A stretch of DNA of 16,103 nt, taken from contig JBFOMH010000031.1 in assembly GCA_040830765.1 (NCBI GenBank), forward strand, positions 1 through 16,103. Direction: 5' to 3'. This document shows, one piece after another, positions 3 to 13,378 of the stretch (positions within the stretch are counted from its first letter, which is position 1; each line of letters starts with the position of its first letter). A model generated the notes under the pieces. It searched no databases, had not been told where the DNA came from, and saw only the letters and a program-made list of their open reading frames with translations. The stretch is from Puniceicoccaceae bacterium. Lineage in GTDB: Bacteria > Verrucomicrobiota > Verrucomicrobiia > Opitutales > Oceanipulchritudinaceae. A program made the position numbers and the translations under genes.

Positions 3-443
3 ATCCGCGAGGAACTGGAACGGGATACTTTCGAGGAGATTGACTTCCGGTCCACGACAGCAGGTGGTTTGTCGTACAAGTTCATTGAGGAAGACCGCAT
101 GACGCTGGAAGGCAATGCCGGTCTCAGCTACCGCTATGAAAGCTATACTTTCGACGATCCCTCGGATGACGACTTCGCCGGCCTCGATTTCGGTCTCGAC
201 TTCGGCTGGCAATTCGCTGACTGGGGCAAGCTGGTTTCCAACTTCACCTATGTGCCCAGTATCGACGATTTCGGAGATTATCTCTTCACCCATGAATCGG
301 GTGTGGATATTCCCTTGGGAACCTCGGAAGGTTGGGTCCTGAAGATTGGCCTGAGCCACAAGTATAACAGCAACCCGGCTGACGCCTCTCTCGAGACCCT
401 CGACACAACTTACTTCACCCGCCTCATCCTGAATTGGGAGTAA
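3..443 (+). CDS. DUF481/YdiY-family outer-membrane beta-barrel protein, 5'-truncated by the window edge
   Basis: The frame of ORF 69..443 stays open to position 3 (IREELERDTFEEIDFRSTTAGGLSYKF...). It has alternating aromatic/hydrophobic beta-strands, an 'E.D.F..IDFR' segment, a 'YNSNP...LDTTYFTRL' end and a penultimate Trp, all typical of DUF481 barrels. Confidence 0.75.
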   Translation: MREELERDTFEEIDFRSTTAGGLSYKFIEEDRMTLEGNAGLSYRYESYTFDDPSDDDFAGLDFGLDFGWQFADWGKLVSNFTYVPSIDDFGDYLFTHESGVDIPLGTSEGWVLKIGLSHKYNSNPADASLETLDTTYFTRLILNWE

Positions 444-1337: not shown

Positions 1338-1369
1338 AAAGCCCCGGCATATGCCGGGGCTTTTTTATT
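1338..1369 (+). terminator. Rho-independent terminator after mscS, possibly also serving the convergent LytTR gene
   Basis: Perfect palindrome AAAGCCCCGGCATATGCCGGGGCTTT (1338-1363) whose 3' arm runs into TTTTTTATT. It starts 25 nt after the mscS stop and lies between convergent genes. Confidence 0.9.
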
Positions 1370-1391: not shown

Positions 1392-2129
1392 CTAAATACT
1401 CATGACCGACTTGAAGAACTGGGCTGCCCGGCGTGACATCTGGACCTTGGTTTCGTCCTTCAGGGTAACCAGCAGGCCGCCGTTGAACCATGGCTGGATG
1501 TTGCGAATCCACTTCAGGTTGACCATTTGCTTCCGGTTGGCGCGGAAGAAGTACTTTGATGGGAGGCGATCCTCCATGTAGTTGAGGGTCCGGCTGACCA
1601 GGGGCTTGTTGTCATCGAAGAATATCCGGACATAATTGTCCTCGGACTCGAGAAGCCGGATTTTGTCATAATCGACAAACCAGCAGCTTTCACCATCCTT
1701 GATGAAAATGTAGTCGTAATCGTCACTTCCCACCGCGGTCACAGCCGCTTCGGAAATTCGCTTGTACTTCTCCAGGCGCTGCTCAATGGAGCCAAGCAGA
1801 TCCTCCGGTTCGAAAGGCTTGGTGATATAGTCATCAGCACCAGCGCCCAACCCCTCACGGATGTCATCCGGGTCGGTTTTCGCGGTCAGGAAGATAAAGG
1901 GGATAACGGCTGTTTCCGGGTCTTTCTGCAAGGCATCAAAAACCCCATGTCCATCCAGTTCCGGCATCATGACGTCCGAGACAATAAGGTCGGGTTTTAT
2001 CTTCTTGGCCAGCTTGAGGCCTTCCTTGCCGTCGTTGGCGGACTCCACGGTATAGCCTGCGGTTTCCAGCAGATCGACCACCGGCAGGCGGACATTTTCA
2101 TCGTCTTCGAGAATGAGGATAGTGGTCAT
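1392..2129 (-). CDS. Two-component response regulator, REC + LytTR DNA-binding domain
   Basis: N-terminal REC (EDD acidic pocket, phospho-Asp52 in SDVMMP, FLTAK, KPF). C-terminal LytTR (IFIKDG..CWFV, ESEDNYV, FFRANRKQMVNL, VQMSRR). Start overlaps the kinase stop (ATGA, 2126-2129). Confidence 0.92.
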   Translation of the reverse strand: MTTILILEDDENVRLPVVDLLETAGYTVESANDGKEGLKLAKKIKPDLIVSDVMMPELDGHGVFDALQKDPETAVIPFIFLTAKTDPDDIREGLGAGADDYITKPFEPEDLLGSIEQRLEKYKRISEAAVTAVGSDDYDYIFIKDGESCWFVDYDKIRLLESEDNYVRIFFDDNKPLVSRTLNYMEDRLPSKYFFRANRKQMVNLKWIRNIQPWFNGGLLVTLKDETKVQMSRRAAQFFKSVMSI

Positions 2130-3643
2130 GATGTTCCTTTGGATTCAGTATGCTTTGGCAGCGAGACACGAAAGGTGGATCCTTCGTTCTCAGTGGAGGA
2201 AAACTCGATATCTCCCTTCAGGAGTTCAACCGCGCGGCGAACAATATTGAGCCCGAGGCCGGTTCCTTGTCGGGCACCGACGTTTCCGGCCCGATGGAAG
2301 GCTTCAAAGAGGCGCTTCTGGTCGGATTCTGGAATGCCGATTCCCTTGTCACTGACGGAAAACTGAAGATGTGTATCGGATTCATCGACAGAACAGGTCA
2401 CGGCTGACTCCCCATTGGAGTATTTGACGGCGTTTCCGAGGAGGTTTTGGAGGATATGGTCCAGCAGGTGTTCGTCGAGCAAGTAGGGATTGCCCTTTGG
2501 GATCCGGCAATCGCTGAGAATTTCCCGGTCCGGATATATGGGCGAGAAACGCTCGATGAAGGCCGGAAGATAGGTCGCAAGGTCAACCGGCTTAAGAGAG
2601 ACCTTAACTTTATCGGACTCAGCCTGACTGAAGAAGAGGACATCATCGAGAAGGCGGTTCATGCGTTTCAGGGAAACCTCGATGTTTTCAAGGTGACGTT
2701 CCTTCTTGGTCTCCTGCAGTTTGTCCCCGTATTTCTTGAGAAGGGCGGCGGAGGCGCGTATACCGGTCATGGGAGTGCGGAATTCATGGCTGACCATCGA
2801 GATGAAGCGGGTCTTGATGTCGTTCAATTCCTTTTCCTGCTCCAGGGCCTGGCGGTAGCGCCTCTCGCTTCGCTCGAGGGATTCCTGTGCCTTAACTTGC
2901 TCGGTCACGTCCAGTTGAATGCCGACAAAATGGGTCAGCTCACCTTTTTCGCTGTAAACTGGTGAGATGTGGAGCTCGTTATGGAAAAGGGTTCCATCCT
3001 TGCGGTAGTTTCGCAGGCGGACGATGCAGGACTCACCGTTACGGAGGCACTTCCGGAGGTGTTCCAGTTCCAACTGGTCCCGGTCGGTTCCCTGGAGGAA
3101 GCGACAGCTTCGTCCTATGGCCTCCTTGGCTGAATACCCAGTGATGTCCTGGAAGCCCTTGTTGACATAGATCAACGGCAAGTCGGGTTGCCGGGCATCC
3201 GCAACCGTCACACCTGAAGTGACGTTGGCAATGGCAATGTTACGCAGGGCAATATCTTCCCGGGCCTGGACCCGCTCGGAGACATCCTGGAAAGTAATCA
3301 AATACAGGGGCTCTTCGGTCTCGACCGTGCTGCAGGTAAACTCGCAGGAGAAGGGGAATCCGTCCCGATGCTCGAGAAGACCTTCAAATCGGGCGGATTG
3401 ATTTGGGGCCGTCAGGCTGTCGATGAGCGCGGAAAGTTCCTTCGAGGACTGTTCCGGCCAGAGCTGCCCGAGGTCCATTTTCTTCAATTCTCGTTCATTC
3501 CAGCCGAGGAGGTCCTGTGCCCGCTCATTGGAGCGGAGAATCTGGCAATCCACCGCCTTCGCTACCAGGACGGCCTCGCCTGTCTGGGCGAGGAGCGCAT
3601 CAAGGAGAGGATCGTGCGGATCGGATGGATTGGCTGAGGTCAT
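2126..3643 (-). CDS. Cytoplasmic sensor histidine kinase: PAS + LOV + HisKA + HATPase_c
   Basis: No transmembrane helix seen. PAS1 ends in QDVSER. The second PAS has LOV signatures (PLIYVN.GF..ITGY, GRSCRFLQG, NYRKDG, FVGIQLDVT). H-box SHEFRTP (His286), N-box NLLGNAVKYS, G1 DKGIGI, F-box LFEAF, G2 GTGLGL. Confidence 0.93.
   Translation of the reverse strand: MTSANPSDPHDPLLDALLAQTGEAVLVAKAVDCQILRSNERAQDLLGWNERELKKMDLGQLWPEQSSKELSALIDSLTAPNQSARFEGLLEHRDGFPFSCEFTCSTVETEEPLYLITFQDVSERVQAREDIALRNIAIANVTSGVTVADARQPDLPLIYVNKGFQDITGYSAKEAIGRSCRFLQGTDRDQLELEHLRKCLRNGESCIVRLRNYRKDGTLFHNELHISPVYSEKGELTHFVGIQLDVTEQVKAQESLERSERRYRQALEQEKELNDIKTRFISMVSHEFRTPMTGIRASAALLKKYGDKLQETKKERHLENIEVSLKRMNRLLDDVLFFSQAESDKVKVSLKPVDLATYLPAFIERFSPIYPDREILSDCRIPKGNPYLLDEHLLDHILQNLLGNAVKYSNGESAVTCSVDESDTHLQFSVSDKGIGIPESDQKRLFEAFHRAGNVGARQGTGLGLNIVRRAVELLKGDIEFSSTENEGSTFRVSLPKHTESKGTS
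2903..3230 (-). other. LOV (flavin-binding PAS) domain within the histidine kinase
   Basis: GRSCRFLQ is encoded at 3115-3092 with the adduct-forming Cys180. Conserved Gln243 (GIQ), both Asn residues (NYRKDG, HNEL), the E/K salt-bridge residues and the DVT terminus are present. Confidence 0.85.
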
Positions 3644-3654
3644 TTATCCATGGA

Positions 3655-3682
3655 ATTATAATGAAAACGGGCCGTTCTGCAA
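3655..3682 (-). promoter_or_regulatory. Putative sigma70-type promoter of the LOV kinase-LytTR operon
   Basis: Minus strand TTGCAG (3682-3677), 16 nt spacer, perfect TATAAT (3660-3655), then 11 nt to the ATG at 3643. Confidence 0.55.
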
Positions 3683-3711
3683 ATCCTTCAGTGGACTTCC
3701 TTCAATGGCGA

Positions 3712-7978: not shown

Positions 7979-9580
7979 TTACGAGCCCGTAGCGACCGCG
8001 ACATCCTTGCCGACGTAGCGGAGGGACATTGCGGTGACAAAGCCCCCCAGGACAAGCATCACCGTCGACACGCCGCCGATGAGCGAGAAAGGTCCGTTGG
8101 AGACCGCCATCATGGCAAGGGCGGACAGCGGCATGATCACCATGACAACAACCGCGGGGATGATAAATCCGTAGGCGATGCGGTTGCTCTTGAGAAAGAC
8201 GAGGAAGGTCAGGAGGGCCAGGGCTGCCATCAACTGGTTGGTGGCGCCGAAGAGCGGCCATACGGCCTTCCACGCCGGCTGGCCGTCAATGGTCTGGAAC
8301 ATGGCGAATGCCGGAATGACCAGTACCGCCAGTGTGCCCAGGTAACGGGTCTTGGGGCCCCGGGAATCAAGTAATTCCTCAAGGATAAAGCGGCTCAACC
8401 GGGTACAGGTATCGAGGGTGGTCAAGAGGAAGGTACTGACTGCCAGGAGGGTGAATTCCATCGCCAGGGATTGGGGAAGGCCGATGGAGCCCATGAACTT
8501 TGCCGCCCCGGTGGCGAAAATGGCAACCGGTGTGCCCGCCGTTGTACGCTCAACCTCGGTCAGGATGGCGATGGTGCCAAGGGCGAAGACCGCCAGGACG
8601 CCCTCGACCAGCATGCCGCCGTAGTTGACTTTGCGGATATCGCTTTCGCGGGCCAGCTGCTTGGAGGTTGTCCCGCTGCTGACAATGCTGTGAAAGCCGC
8701 TGCAGGCCCCGCAGGCCACCGTTATGAAGAGGATGGGGATCAGGGTGCCCGCCTGCGGATGATTCCAGCCGCTGAACAGATCAATCTGGATCGGGGCGGA
8801 TGAAAAAAGAACCCCGACAATACCCGTCGCCATGAGGATGTAGAGAAAGGTCGAGGATAGGAAATCCCTTGGTTGCAGGAGGACCTGAACCGGCAGAATG
8901 GAGGCAATGAAACAATAGACGAGGATGCAAAGAGCCCAGGTACTCCCGCTCAGTTCAGGCATGGGAAAGTAATGTCCCACTACCAGGCCAAAGTAAGTCA
9001 GCGGAATGAAAATCGCGATGCTGGTCACGAACGACAGCTTGGTCCGCGTCAGGGCAAATCCAAATCCCAGCGCGATGAGGATGAACCAGCCCGATGATGT
9101 CGCCACCGACGGGGTGGTGGAGAAGGTCGAGGCGGTCAGGTCAAGAAAGACGATGATCACATAAATCAACGCCAGCAGGACAAACAGGGCAAACAAGCGG
9201 CCCGTCCGCTGCCCGACAATGGAACGCATCGCTTCCGCAATCGACCGGCCCCCTGTCCTCGCCGATATGAAGGCTGCCCCGTAGTCATGCACGCCCCCCA
9301 CAAACGCCGCCCCAATGAGAATCCACAGCCACGTCGGACCCCAGCCAAAGTACATCGCTGCCAGGATCGGGCCCACGATCGGTCCCGCTCCCGCAATCGA
9401 GGAGAAATGATGGCCGAACAGGATGGAGGCCCGCGTCGGTACGTAATCCACTCCGTCCTTCAACGTCTCCGCCGGCGTCGGACGGCTGTCATCCAATTGG
9501 CAACGCCGGTCCAAAAATTTCCCGTAGACCCGGTAGGCCACCGCGAAAAAGACGATCGAAATCAGGAGTAGAGCTAACAT
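7979..9580 (-). CDS. cstA: Carbon starvation protein A family transporter (peptide/pyruvate uptake family)
   Basis: TPA...[71 protein letters not shown] and many TM helices. The start is placed at ATG 9580. Confidence 0.93.
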
Positions 9581-9587
9581 GGGGCGG

Positions 9588-9618
9588 ATTTTTACCCTGT
9601 CCACCCCGGTCCTGTCAA
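9588..9618 (-). promoter_or_regulatory. Putative promoter of cstA (leaderless candidate)
   Basis: Perfect TTGACA (9618-9613), 18 nt spacer, TAAAAAT (9594-9588), then 7 nt (CCGCCCC) to ATG 9580. No SD is present. Confidence 0.5.
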
Positions 9619-9724: not shown

Positions 9725-10798
9725 ATGAAGACACGAGAAGGAGCGAAATACGAATTACTGGTGGCGACGAGCATGGGCGTGCGGTTAACGCCGAAGGCGG
9801 GGCAACCGGTGCACAGTGCGCGGGAGTTCATCATGCAGGCGACGAGTGCTGAATCGAACGTGGCGAGCATTGTCTCGTACCTGGGACTACCGGTGAAGGT
9901 ATTGACCAATTTTGTTAAAGGAAGCCCGGTGGCGCGTTTCATCAGGGATGACTTGGCCTCGCGGCACATGGATGTGGAGGGCCCGGAAGTGGAGCAGGGC
10001 GGTCCCTGGGGCTGCCGGCACCAGATCAACATCGCGGACAGCGGAGCGGGCCTGCGGGGTCCCCGGGTCCAAAACGACCGGGCTGGGGAAGTAGGCCGGA
10101 CCCTTTCGGTTGAGGACTTTGACTTGGAGCGTATCTTTGGCGAGGAAGGCGTAAAGGTGGTGCACCTTTCGGGGCTGGTGGCAGCCTTGTCACCGGAGAC
10201 TGGCCAATTTTGCCAGGAGATCGCACGGGCGGCCAAGAAGCATGGCAGCCTGATCTCCTTTGATTTGAATCACCGGGCCTCATTCTGGATAAATCGCGAG
10301 GAGGAACTGGCGGGAATTTTCAAGGAGATTGCCGGTCTTTCGGATATTCTCGTTGGCAATGAGGAAGACTTCCAGCTTTGCCTTGGGGTTGCCGGACCGG
10401 AAGCGGGTGGCCAGGGCCTGCAGGGCAAGATTGACGGGTTCAAGGAGATGATCACCCGGGTGAAGGCCGAGTATCCCGATACTTCTGTATTTGCGACTAC
10501 CTTGCGGGAAGTCATCAGCGTAAACAAGCACCTCTGGGGAGCGATCCTCTCCGCAGGCGACGACTGGCATGTCATCGAGCCGAGGGAAATCGGCGTAGTT
10601 GACCGGATTGGTGGTGGCGACGGATTTGTTGGCGGGATGCTCTACGCGATGCTGAAGGGCTGGGAACCAGAGAAGTGGGCCCAGTTTGGCTGGGCCAATG
10701 GGGCTTTCACGACGACGCTCCTGACCGATTACTCCCAACCGGCCGACGAGGAACAGATCTGGTCCCTCTGGGAAGGCAACGCCCGCGTGCGCCGCTAG
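9725..10798 (+). CDS. PfkB/ribokinase-family sugar kinase, 2-keto-3-deoxygluconate kinase-like
   Basis: AESNVA, VHLSG, SFDLNHRASFW, GNEED, ATTLRE and anion-hole motif DRIGGGDGF. AAAGGA SD lies upstream. The substrate cannot be determined from sequence. Confidence 0.85.
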   Translation: MKTREGAKYELLVATSMGVRLTPKAGQPVHSAREFIMQATSAESNVASIVSYLGLPVKVLTNFVKGSPVARFIRDDLASRHMDVEGPEVEQGGPWGCRHQINIADSGAGLRGPRVQNDRAGEVGRTLSVEDFDLERIFGEEGVKVVHLSGLVAALSPETGQFCQEIARAAKKHGSLISFDLNHRASFWINREEELAGIFKEIAGLSDILVGNEEDFQLCLGVAGPEAGGQGLQGKIDGFKEMITRVKAEYPDTSVFATTLREVISVNKHLWGAILSAGDDWHVIEPREIGVVDRIGGGDGFVGGMLYAMLKGWEPEKWAQFGWANGAFTTTLLTDYSQPADEEQIWSLWEGNARVRR

Positions 10799-10807
10799 GA
10801 CCTGTCC

Positions 10808-12097
10808 TTAGTAAAGGTCCATCAAGGTCCCGAAATCCGGTTCAAAGAGCCGCTTGTAGGCGCGGATTGCCTGGCCATCCGTCAGGGAGGCGAGGTAATC
10901 ACAGAGCAAGCGACGCTTCGTCTGGTCGTCCCCGGCGTTGTGGACCCATTGATTGACCGGGTCGGGCAGGATTCGCAAGGGCTTCTCGAGGTTGCCAAGG
11001 AGGTGTTCCGTGTAGGCTTCAAAAAGGCGGGTCAGCAGGTATCCGCCTTTGAACTCAATTTGCTGGAGGGGTGGGGACTTGAAAATCAGATCAAAGGCAA
11101 TCCGCTTGTGCAGGCTGCAGACCTCGCGGACCCGCGGCTCGATGTGCAACTGGAAGCGGTGCCGGTTGGTTAATTCGGCGAGCTCGGAGTCAACCGGCTT
11201 CAAGGAGCAGGCTTGGATGAACTGGCCGATCCAGAGACTGGTCCGGGGTTCATAACCGCCGGAGCGGATTTCATTAATCAAATCGTCAAGGGTCTGGTTC
11301 TGGTAGCTGGTCAGATCCGCCTGCTGATCGGCCCATTCCTGGAGGGAGTCCGGGGTGATGAAACGGGCCTTGATGCCGTCAACAATGTCGTGGAGGGAAT
11401 AGGCGGTGTCGTCGGCCCAGTCCATAATCTGGCACTCGATACTCTTGAGGGAGTTGATTTGGTCAGGTGAGCGTCCACTGAAGTCAATGCCCGGGAAGAC
11501 GAATTCCCGCAGATCCTTCTGGTCATCATAAAGGAAATGATTGTCAGGATATTGCATTTGCTCCCCGGTATCCCGGCAGCTCTCCGTATGCAGGGCCTTG
11601 TATTTGAGGATGCCGTCAAGGAAGGCCCGTGTCGGTTTCATGCCAGAGGGGCGATCCGGCCGTTCATATATGAGTTTGGTAAGGATGCGCAGTGTTTGGG
11701 CGTTGCCCTCGAAGCCTCCGTGAACGGACATCAGCTCGTTCAGTTTGCGCTCACCGATGTGACCAAAGGGCGGATGGCCAAGGTCATGGGCGAGACCGAC
11801 GGCCTCGACAAGGTCCGGGTCAATCTGAAAGTCCGGCCGCAGTCGCTCGCTGGTCTGGTTGATGTATTCGGCAATGGAGCGGGAAATGCGGGCGACCTCG
11901 ATGGTATGGGTCAATCGCGTGCGGTAAAAATCATATTCACCCGACTGGAAGACCTGGGTCTTGGATTGCAGTTGGCGGAAGGCGGAAGAAAAGAGAACCC
12001 GGTCCCGGTCAATCTGGAAGGGCGTGCGGTGGTCATTCTCCGGGCGCTTGCCCGGCAGGTGCTCGCAGTCGAATTCCCCGTAGAATCGATTTTCCAT
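10808..12097 (-). CDS. dgt: Deoxyguanosinetriphosphate triphosphohydrolase (HD superfamily dNTPase)
   Basis: RTPFQIDRDRV, KTQVF, RTRLTHTIEVA, AHDLGHPPFGH.GE, FEGNAQ, WADDTAYSLHD, DYLASLTD. The start is placed at ATG 12097 (MENRFY) rather than the TTG at 12133. Confidence 0.92.
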   Translation of the reverse strand: MENRFYGEFDCEHLPGKRPENDHRTPFQIDRDRVLFSSAFRQLQSKTQVFQSGEYDFYRTRLTHTIEVARISRSIAEYINQTSERLRPDFQIDPDLVEAVGLAHDLGHPPFGHIGERKLNELMSVHGGFEGNAQTLRILTKLIYERPDRPSGMKPTRAFLDGILKYKALHTESCRDTGEQMQYPDNHFLYDDQKDLREFVFPGIDFSGRSPDQINSLKSIECQIMDWADDTAYSLHDIVDGIKARFITPDSLQEWADQQADLTSYQNQTLDDLINEIRSGGYEPRTSLWIGQFIQACSLKPVDSELAELTNRHRFQLHIEPRVREVCSLHKRIAFDLIFKSPPLQQIEFKGGYLLTRLFEAYTEHLLGNLEKPLRILPDPVNQWVHNAGDDQTKRRLLCDYLASLTDGQAIRAYKRLFEPDFGTLMDLY

Positions 12098-12151
12098 ATT
12101 TGCCAAGTAGAAGCATTCCCGCACCGGGTACAACCGGAAAGCAATCCTTCC

Positions 12152-12651: not shown

Positions 12652-12787
12652 TGCTGTTTTCCCTACACAAGATCCCTATTGAAATTAGGTGAAATTACCT
12701 AGGCCTGCCCGGTCAACCACCCAAGCCTTTATGGTTGCAGTGTGGACAGGATTGGCATTGTATCCTTCACTCAAGACTGCTGGCCGC

Positions 12788-13378
12788 ATGGATATACTCA
12801 TAGCTGAGGACGACTTCATTTCTCGCAAACTGCTCGTGAACATTCTCGAGGAGCTTGGGCATGTGGTATCTGTTGCTTCCGATGGGGAAGAGGCCTGGGA
12901 GATTTATAAAAAGCAACCCAGTCGCATGGTCATTACCGATTGGCTCATGCCGCGACTTGATGGGCTGGAACTGGTGCGGAAAATCCGCTCCGAGGACATG
13001 TCCGACTACACCTACGTTGTTCTCCTGACGGCAAATATTGGCCAGAGGGAGAACTACTTCAAGGCCATGGAGGCCGGGGTAGATGATTTCCTTGCCAAGC
13101 CGCTGGACCGTATCGAACTCGAGATCCGTCTCAATGTCGCCTCCCGTATCCTCAAGGCCAGTTCCCACATTCATTCATTGGAAAGTGTCCTGACGATTTG
13201 TGCCTACACCAAGAAGATCAATTTCCCGGACGAAGGCTGGCAGACGATCGAGGACTTCATGCGCAAGCATCTTGGGCTCACGGTTTCCCATGGAATTGAG
13301 CCCGAGTACTACGACAAGGTCATCAAGCCACAGTTGGAAAACCTGAAAAAACACAATTCCAAGGCCAAGGAGGCCTGA
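12788..13378 (+). CDS. Orphan response regulator: REC + short C-terminal domain of unknown function
   Basis: MDILIAEDD start at 12788 (not GTG 12689), TDWLMP phospho-Asp, LLTA, DDFLAKP, a coiled-coil linker, then ICAYTKKI...W..IE.F...SHGI.P. Confidence 0.88.
   Translation: MDILIAEDDFISRKLLVNILEELGHVVSVASDGEEAWEIYKKQPSRMVITDWLMPRLDGLELVRKIRSEDMSDYTYVVLLTANIGQRENYFKAMEAGVDDFLAKPLDRIELEIRLNVASRILKASSHIHSLESVLTICAYTKKINFPDEGWQTIEDFMRKHLGLTVSHGIEPEYYDKVIKPQLENLKKHNSKAKEA

Follow-up and report, generated by a model that had tools for sequence, protein, structure and literature searches.

A predicted blue-light two-component system with a LytTR output and a putative operator at fasciclin genes in Opitutales

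Introduction

The LOV histidine kinases of alphaproteobacteria are of the HWE/HisKA2 types and signal to PhyR, and LovR is a single-domain receiver. To our knowledge, a transcription factor and an operator are known for only a few natural LOV kinases. Here we analyse a gene pair in a stretch of 16,103 nucleotides from Puniceicoccaceae bacterium (positions 1 to 16,103 of contig JBFOMH010000031.1, assembly GCA_040830765.1; hereafter the window), in which a PAS-LOV histidine kinase, P0001, is followed by a response regulator with a receiver and a LytTR domain, P0002. Unlike the alphaproteobacterial LOV kinases, P0001 is of the HisKA type and shares what appears to be one operon with a LytTR transcription factor. 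The original prediction for this locus, made from the sequence alone, knew of no characterised example of such a pairing, and we likewise found no description of a LOV kinase/LytTR pair in the searchable literature, which leaves out most subscription papers; the word LytTR is absent from the accessible parts of PMC4844311 and PMC6798134.

We consider it somewhat probable that P0001 and P0002 form a two-component system for blue light, with a LytTR output that was swapped in, and that they control a small photo-oxidative envelope regulon. Beyond the original prediction, the analysis adds a likely chimeric build of the regulator, a predicted fast photocycle, a predicted operator box and candidate target genes.

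Results

The kinase and regulator form a conserved gene pair

The kinase gene (505 residues; 2126..3643) and the regulator gene (245 residues; 1392..2129) both lie on the minus strand, and the regulator start overlaps the kinase stop in an ATGA at 2126-2129, as had been noted before. Pfam profile searches bear out the earlier domain calls, with PAS_9 in two stretches of P0001 (best 153-248) followed by HisKA (277-343) and HATPase_c (390-497), and with Response_reg (4-115) and LytTR (150-242) in P0002. On the minus strand of the window these correspond to an N-terminal PAS domain (PAS1, residues about 11-125) at 3269..3613, the LOV domain (residues about 137-247) at 2903..3235 with the Cys180 codon at 3104-3106, a helical linker from the DVT motif to His286 at 2789..2902, the HisKA (DHp) domain at 2615..2815 and HATPase_c at 2153..2476, and in the regulator to the receiver at 1785..2120 and the LytTR DNA-binding domain at 1404..1682. 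Every residue on which the original prediction relied (Cys180, Gln243, both Asn residues, DVT, His286 and regulator Asp52) is present on direct reading, the full set being N161, G177, S179, C180, R181, Q184, N212, N222, Q243, D245-V246-T247 and H286 in P0001 and E8/D9/D10, D52, T82 and K104 in P0002. P0001 appears to be soluble, judging from the cytoplasmic Pfam domains that cover the chain and from its sequence. Routine annotation sees only a PAS kinase here, as anticipated: homologues are named merely 'PAS domain' or 'ATP-binding' proteins, and P0001 scores below the cut-offs of the NCBIfam LOV models (156.5 versus 250 for NF052652 and 134.4 versus 450 for NF052306), placing it outside the named NCBIfam LOV families (YtvA family and blue-light-activated histidine kinase).

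A sigma-70-like promoter match (10 of 12 positions; 2 found versus 1.2 expected) lies just upstream of the kinase at 3655..3683 on the minus strand, and an 11-pair hairpin at 1338..1363, assigned to neither strand, separates the regulator from the convergent mscS gene as a likely terminator. Both are consensus matches only, and they fit a two-gene operon. In the source genome of the window, designated G000 (other G numbers denote the relatives compared), the P0001 LOV domain is the sole LOV domain found and the P0002 LytTR domain the sole LytTR.

Among the best 120 of 3062 matches in a cluster search, the P0002 family is discrete, with 114 clusters at E 2e-85 or better, one at 7e-67 and the next at 4e-52; the source names among the matches listed are Oceanipulchritudo, Puniceicoccales and Opitutales. 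A survey of 401 genomes of the order found P0002 at E 3e-98 or better in 25 (families f1, f6 and f16), while 20 carry canonical LytTR matches only, near 1e-46 to 1e-50. Together with G011 and G017, which came from a separate search, this gives 27 carriers. The conservation of the gene neighbourhood, which the original prediction had proposed as a check, was borne out: a LOV kinase lies directly upstream of the regulator in 25 of the 27 carriers, from three families, and in the remaining two, G368 and G397, a contig end interrupts the locus. A metagenome scan yielded three further loci of the family; two of them have a complete Ser-type LOV kinase upstream, and no fasciclin gene accompanies any of the three. 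The genes gdhA and mscS adjoin the pair in genus g1 only, and their position is taken as synteny.

Two related loci differ from this arrangement. At L155:3617-5999 (G017) the kinase and the regulator both seem to be frameshifted, by decay or assembly error, yet the fasciclin promoter of this genome keeps one of the strongest triple repeats described below. L154:151-2971 (G020) encodes a REC-LOV-HisKA kinase followed by a REC-HATPase protein, i.e., the same kinase class with a different output, and G020 has neither a LytTR match nor the repeat at its fasciclin gene.

The LOV domain is the best conserved part of the kinase

Searched against PDB sequences, the LOV segment gave LOV domains as top matches (best E 1.4e-33). 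A single-sequence structure model reached a predicted local distance difference test (pLDDT) score of only 50, and a model from a 36-row alignment (pLDDT 82.7) was used instead; all of its top Foldseek matches are LOV domains, the closest with a root mean square deviation (rmsd) of 1.3-1.7 Å, and it contains one unbroken helix from the DVT motif to the H-box, in agreement with the helical linker proposed earlier. The spacing N161-x2-F164-x4-G169-x10-C180 matches the LOV search pattern given in PMC4844311, which ends in the adduct-forming Cys. G177, C180, R181, Q184, N212, N222 and Q243 are invariant in all 26 kinases compared (the 25 paired ones and that of G020); of these residues, R181, Q184, N212 and N222 contact the flavin and Q243 is the signalling Gln. 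Median identity to P0001 is 75% for the LOV domain, 70% for HisKA, 58% for HATPase and 28% for the weakly conserved PAS1, which was not found in G008, G009, G016 and G202; other orthologues carry a third PAS inserted after the LOV domain. These comparisons suggest that the LOV domain is the invariant sensor of the kinase family, and P0001 likely senses blue light.

Relative to the aligned PDB LOV chains, two positions deviate: Ser179 takes the place of the usual Asn directly before the reactive Cys, and His221 that of the usual Trp; the original prediction named neither. Of the 26 kinases, 17 have Ser and nine have Asn at position 179; of the 96 best protein homologues, 79 have Ser and 14 have Asn, and three lack the motif. 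PpSB-type LOV domains among the aligned chains have Asp at this position, and the AsLOV2 N449S mutant, which matches Ser179, is photoactive with a tau of 0.99 s, about 60-fold faster, the fastest published AsLOV2 single mutant (PMC10751770; bioRxiv 10.1101/2025.10.28.684865). Given both, Asn directly before Cys is not strictly required in a LOV domain. By analogy with this one other protein, the P0001 LOV domain may have a fast photocycle biased towards high light. Four 627-residue multi-PAS kinases (P0233, P0234, P0236 and P0240, three of them named Winogradskyella) have the Asn-Cys LOV motif in one case and no such motif in the other three, a mixed state which suggests that photochemistry was lost within one group.

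The Asp-to-His distance between the LOV domain and the H-box was surveyed in 97 proteins, 57 of which connect LOV directly to HisKA, 35 carry an extra PAS and five could not be parsed. In all 57 direct cases it is 27, 34 or 41 residues and so varies by whole heptads only, the value for P0001 (Asp245 to His286) being 41. A heptad rule for LOV kinase linkers, covering 7n and 7n+1, has been described (PMC6798134). The P0001 linker is five residues longer than that of YF1, which falls outside this rule, and the sign of light regulation therefore cannot be taken from YF1; induction by light is assumed here from the target genes.

The regulator is likely a chimera

P0002 appears to join two domains of different affinity. 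Its LytTR domain (80.6 bits versus a PF04397 cut-off of 22.6) is 57-64% identical to those of canonical LytTR regulators (P0117-P0121 and L125-L129), whereas its receiver is 26-30% identical to theirs or gives no match. The two canonical regulators examined for context (G343 and G369) adjoin partners of the His_kinase family PF06580, and the partner of P0002 is a HisKA (PF00512) kinase. The receiver of P0002 is instead 45-57% identical to receivers from Nostoc, Bacteroidota and Verrucomicrobiota. At the 15 best loci with such receivers, a P0001-like kinase lies directly upstream in 11 and a LytTR domain occurs in none; the outputs at the four loci tested are EAL, Crp-type helix-turn-helix (HTH) and, twice, LuxR-type HTH. 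A 41-row receiver tree groups the P0002 family with the Crp/LuxR/EAL-class receivers (98/97), far from canonical LytTR receivers.

Because the receiver matches the class of the kinase and the LytTR domain that of LytS-partnered regulators, P0002 is likely, though not proven, to be a chimera in which a LytTR domain was swapped in behind the kinase's own receiver class. The pair falls outside the canonical LytS/LytR family. Another REC-LytTR protein, P0116 (244 residues), has a receiver 56% identical to that of P0002 but a LytTR domain only 44% identical, and represents a sister lineage or a second, independent swap.

A triple repeat precedes the fasciclin genes of carriers

In five of the 27 carriers, from two families, a fasciclin gene lies directly behind the regulator (G016, G202, G391, G096 and G154). 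A three-site model was fitted from random starts to 19 fasciclin promoters of 16 carriers, leaving out G000, G010, G016 and G202, and converged on the consensus TCCGTTCAA, a triple 9-bp direct repeat with a period of 20-21 bp; its total was 355, compared with 205-217 in five shuffles and 217-246 for ten other period pairs. The held-out G000 fasciclin promoters rank 1 (21.5) and 2 (18.3) among 1894 promoters of that genome, defined from crude gene calls, and those of G010, G202 and G016 score 21.4, 17.3 and 16.5. G096 and G154, which belong to another family, score 23.1 and 20.9, and three genomes with no LytTR match (G020, G374 and G021) score -4.9, -1.2 and 0.5. When whole genera were left out of training, 18 of 24 fasciclin promoters still fell in the top 1%.

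The repeat fits the format of LytTR sites, which are described as 9-11 bp repeats with 11-13 bp spacers (PMC4847170); here the sites are 9 bp at a period of 20-21 bp, and no other period stands out. The Escherichia coli YehT site printed in the same paper has three repeats at periods of 20 and 21, and its half-sites score 8.6, 1.2 and 7.8 on the fasciclin-repeat matrix. We predict from this resemblance that P0002 would bind the triple repeat as its operator; in G000 the candidate binding sites are C17:257072-257120, C27:50111-50140 and C27:100442-100450, all on the minus strand. Autoregulation was considered and rejected, as the kinase promoter has two half-site-like words 14 bp apart and not 20-21.

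The long fasciclin proteins (G000 C17:255717-257024 on the minus strand, L142, L144 and L141) have a signal peptide, an unassigned Trp-rich N-terminal domain of about 150 residues and two or three FAS1 domains, with up to six FAS1 domains in G023 C74. In G020, many tandem arrays of 21-bp repeats match the pattern in both orientations (contigs C18, C50, C62, C70, C92 and C96), and these are probably 7-residue coding repeats or intergenic repeats.

Other candidate targets

The start of the window overlaps the C27 contig end of G000, and a DUF481 gene is split between the two, with its 3' part at 3..443 on the plus strand of the window and the rest on C27. This overlap places an operon of an amine-oxidase (COG2907-like), a DUF1365 and a CMAS (cfa) gene about 2.2 kb beyond the regulator stop. 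We take COG2907 and DUF1365 to correspond to RSP_1091/1090 of Rhodobacter sphaeroides. COG2907 promoters were never used in the training matrix, and a half-site scoring at least 8 is present at -85 to -95 in nine of 21 carriers, compared with 0.5% of G000 promoters and none of four non-carriers. Full triples occur at COG2907 in G391 and G016, and among 586 orthologous promoter pairs of G000 and G004 COG2907 ranked second for a single conserved site. The COG2907-DUF1365-cfa operon is probably a target of P0002.

G000 also carries a class I photolyase, a further photolyase-like gene and a DPRP gene. At C21:62104-66166 a cysK-like gene is followed by the class I photolyase and the DPRP photolyase-related gene, and most of the bacterial family retains this order of cysK and photolyase, with or without the LOV pair. 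Phytoene synthase, BLUF and the ChrR cupin were not found in the five carriers searched. In particular, Cupin_7 (ChrR) was not matched in G000 or 11 other genomes of its genus, where positive controls were detected, and strong ChrR-type cupins occur in none of 25 carriers and in 18 of 376 non-carriers, numbers too small for significance. With regard to control by a CarH/LitR-type B12 photoreceptor, whose repressor is a B12-binding protein of MerR type, the two B12-binding_2 matches in G000 are a 1251-residue frame and a 209-residue corrinoid protein which, by eye, has no N-terminal HTH.

Elsewhere in the window, a plus-strand gene at 9725-10798 encodes a 357-residue PfkB/KDG-kinase-like sugar kinase, judged by eye, and is adjoined by a CstA-like transporter (7979-9604) and a dGTPase-like HD protein (10808-12133). 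A second response regulator (12776-13378, plus strand) has a receiver at 7-118 and a short C-terminal tail with a C-x2-like motif, without a recognised output domain.

Discussion

In the mechanism that we infer, from adduct formation, short lit state and torque to transfer to Asp52, cooperative binding and activation, blue light would drive formation of a flavin mononucleotide (FMN)-Cys180 adduct in the LOV domain of P0001. Ser179 would make the lit state short-lived, such that only strong light would keep the kinase switched. Torque would pass via the linker helix to His286, followed by phosphotransfer from His286 to Asp52 of P0002, which may then bind the triple repeat cooperatively and activate rather than repress. 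The fasciclin genes, and probably the COG2907-DUF1365-cfa operon, would be switched on, and the result would be a photo-oxidative stress response of envelope and membrane, of the kind run by RpoE-ChrR in Rhodobacter. As for its origin, the regulator probably arose by transfer of a LytTR domain from a LytS-partnered regulator to a position behind the receiver that belonged with the kinase.

A number of results weigh against this proposal, beginning with the fact that the carrier genomes are kin, so that counts across them are not independent. For the chimeric build, an approximately unbiased test of the P0002 family and canonical LytTR receivers as one clade gave p = 0.384 and did not reject it. 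For the operator, the form of the three-site model was chosen after the promoters had been read by eye; the G391 fasciclin gene adjoining the regulator scores 1.5 as a triple; and the six of 24 promoters that miss the top 1% are those of G012 (2.7%), two of G023 and three of genus g4. A two-site matrix scan of the whole of G000, based on ten training half-sites, was not enriched (seven matches of at least 18 versus 5-16 in permuted controls), and genome-wide counts of a strict pattern were similar in size to those of a reversed control, so that only its position next to fasciclin genes is informative. For the wider regulon, no new triple site emerged from the 586 G000/G004 promoter pairs, the G000 COG2907 promoter has one strong half-site with a triple score only in the top 40%, a strong site at the COG2907 position is absent in 12 of 21 carriers, and the class I photolyase promoters have no evident repeat by eye and are not in the top 45 G000 promoters.

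An improbable alternative is a real light-sensing pair whose fasciclin repeat is bound by another factor, or whose main targets lie elsewhere. Training and held-out promoters are homologous, so that any conserved factor would score in the held-out tests; in several carriers some fasciclin or COG2907 promoters have no such repeat, and the G004 comparison covered only 2.02 Mb of about 3.5 Mb (58%). Yet the repeat shares length, period and letters with a published LytTR site, the P0002 family is the only LytTR found in G000, G004, G010, G011, G012, G007, G017, G019, G022 and others, and the adjacency of fasciclin gene and regulator recurs in five genomes of two families. The strict pattern, moreover, is found no more than 1 kb upstream of a listed fasciclin domain in 10 carriers out of 22, seven of these ten matches having helped to write it, and in none of 73 non-carriers. 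This comparison was made by hand, with 79 weaker fasciclin matches outside the list and with G245, G203, G272 and G275, which lacked coordinates, dropped.

Somewhat likelier, but still improbable in our view, is that the same pair and operator serve a flavin that reports redox state, oxygen or singlet oxygen, with light secondary and LOV photochemistry kept. The Rhodobacter counterparts of the targets are general singlet-oxygen genes, the Caulobacter LovK-LovR system represses its stress pathway with, it seems, no need of light (PMC4844311), a point that also weighs against the proposal itself, an adduct of very short life would, to judge from the AsLOV2 data, be sparsely populated in dim light, and phytoene synthase was missing from the five carrier genomes searched. 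Against these stand the invariance of Cys180 and Gln243, with Cys-less PAS kinases falling mostly outside the best-scoring homologue set, and the induction of fasciclin genes by light in another phylum. Lastly, the LOV-like domain might be photo-inert, with flavin binding weakened by Ser179, and act as a dimerisation or ligand-binding PAS with input from PAS1. Ser179 and His221 are indeed unusual for a LOV domain, and in AsLOV2 flavin binding was lost when position 449 was changed to Ala, Ile, Lys or Thr (PMC10751770; bioRxiv 10.1101/2025.10.28.684865), which marks the position as sensitive and counts against a photoactive P0001 as well. We nevertheless regard this as very improbable, as Ser and Asn alternate among the 96 best homologues while all other flavin contacts are fixed, the Ser variant of AsLOV2 photocycles, and PAS1, absent from some orthologues, is less conserved than any other domain.

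Returning to the proposed blue-light system, it is tempting to speculate, as a possibility that we would place short of an even chance, that Opitutales have rebuilt the proteobacterial singlet-oxygen core regulon under a photoreceptor by means of a LytTR swap, a YehT-type operator recruited to fasciclin and cyclopropane-lipid genes, and an Asn-to-Ser change giving a LOV domain that responds on the scale of seconds and to high light only. Such a system would be an example of regulon capture by domain swapping and would give Verrucomicrobiota a light-signalling pathway, none having been found there in the literature searched. It would also constitute a native set of LOV kinase, transcription factor and operator of a type not found in that literature, and a compact and rapid switch for optogenetics, a field in which a LOV kinase that cycles fast by nature and brings its own promoter would be useful. 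Since kinase, regulator, predicted operator and candidate targets are all named, the circuit lends itself to testing as a whole, both in vitro and in E. coli. It may further offer a handle on bacterial fasciclin proteins, which are light- or singlet-oxygen-induced in three phyla and whose role is not known.

Among known systems, the predicted target classes (fasciclin, RSP_1091/1090-like and cfaS) are shared with RpoE-ChrR of R. sphaeroides, whose singlet-oxygen RpoE regulon includes the fasciclin gene RSP_1409 (log2 change 2.8 and 4.5), RSP_1091/1090 and cfaS (PMC7074977). In Mycobacterium kansasii, light induces two fasciclin genes 3- and 6-fold (PMC9861118). The control would differ, in that a photoreceptor kinase and a LytTR operator would take the place of an anti-sigma factor, and photolyases show no sign of belonging to the P0002 regulon. 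In its sensor and kinase, P0001 resembles the LOV kinases of Caulobacter (LovK-LovR), Brucella (LOV-HK) and Erythrobacter and the engineered YF1 and SB2F1, with a reactive Cys, a D-x-T motif and a coiled-coil linker into the DHp domain; YF1 and SB2F1 are its best full-length PDB matches, and the Meiothermus Mrub_1259 LOV domain (MrLOV) is the best fold match (rmsd 1.3 Å). The receiver is like those of the PAS-HisKA pairs with REC-Crp, REC-LuxR or REC-EAL proteins in Bacteroidota, Verrucomicrobiota and Cyanobacteria, where the 15 best loci have no LytTR domain. P0002 has its LytTR domain in common with the LytS/LytTR systems (E. coli YehU/YehT (BtsS/BtsR) and YpdA/YpdB), and its predicted operator resembles the YehT site; unlike the canonical LytTR regulators of Opitutales, it has a distant receiver and a LOV-HisKA partner instead of a PF06580 kinase. 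By analogy with these systems, the pair would work in the manner of a LOV kinase coupled to an activator of the YehT type.

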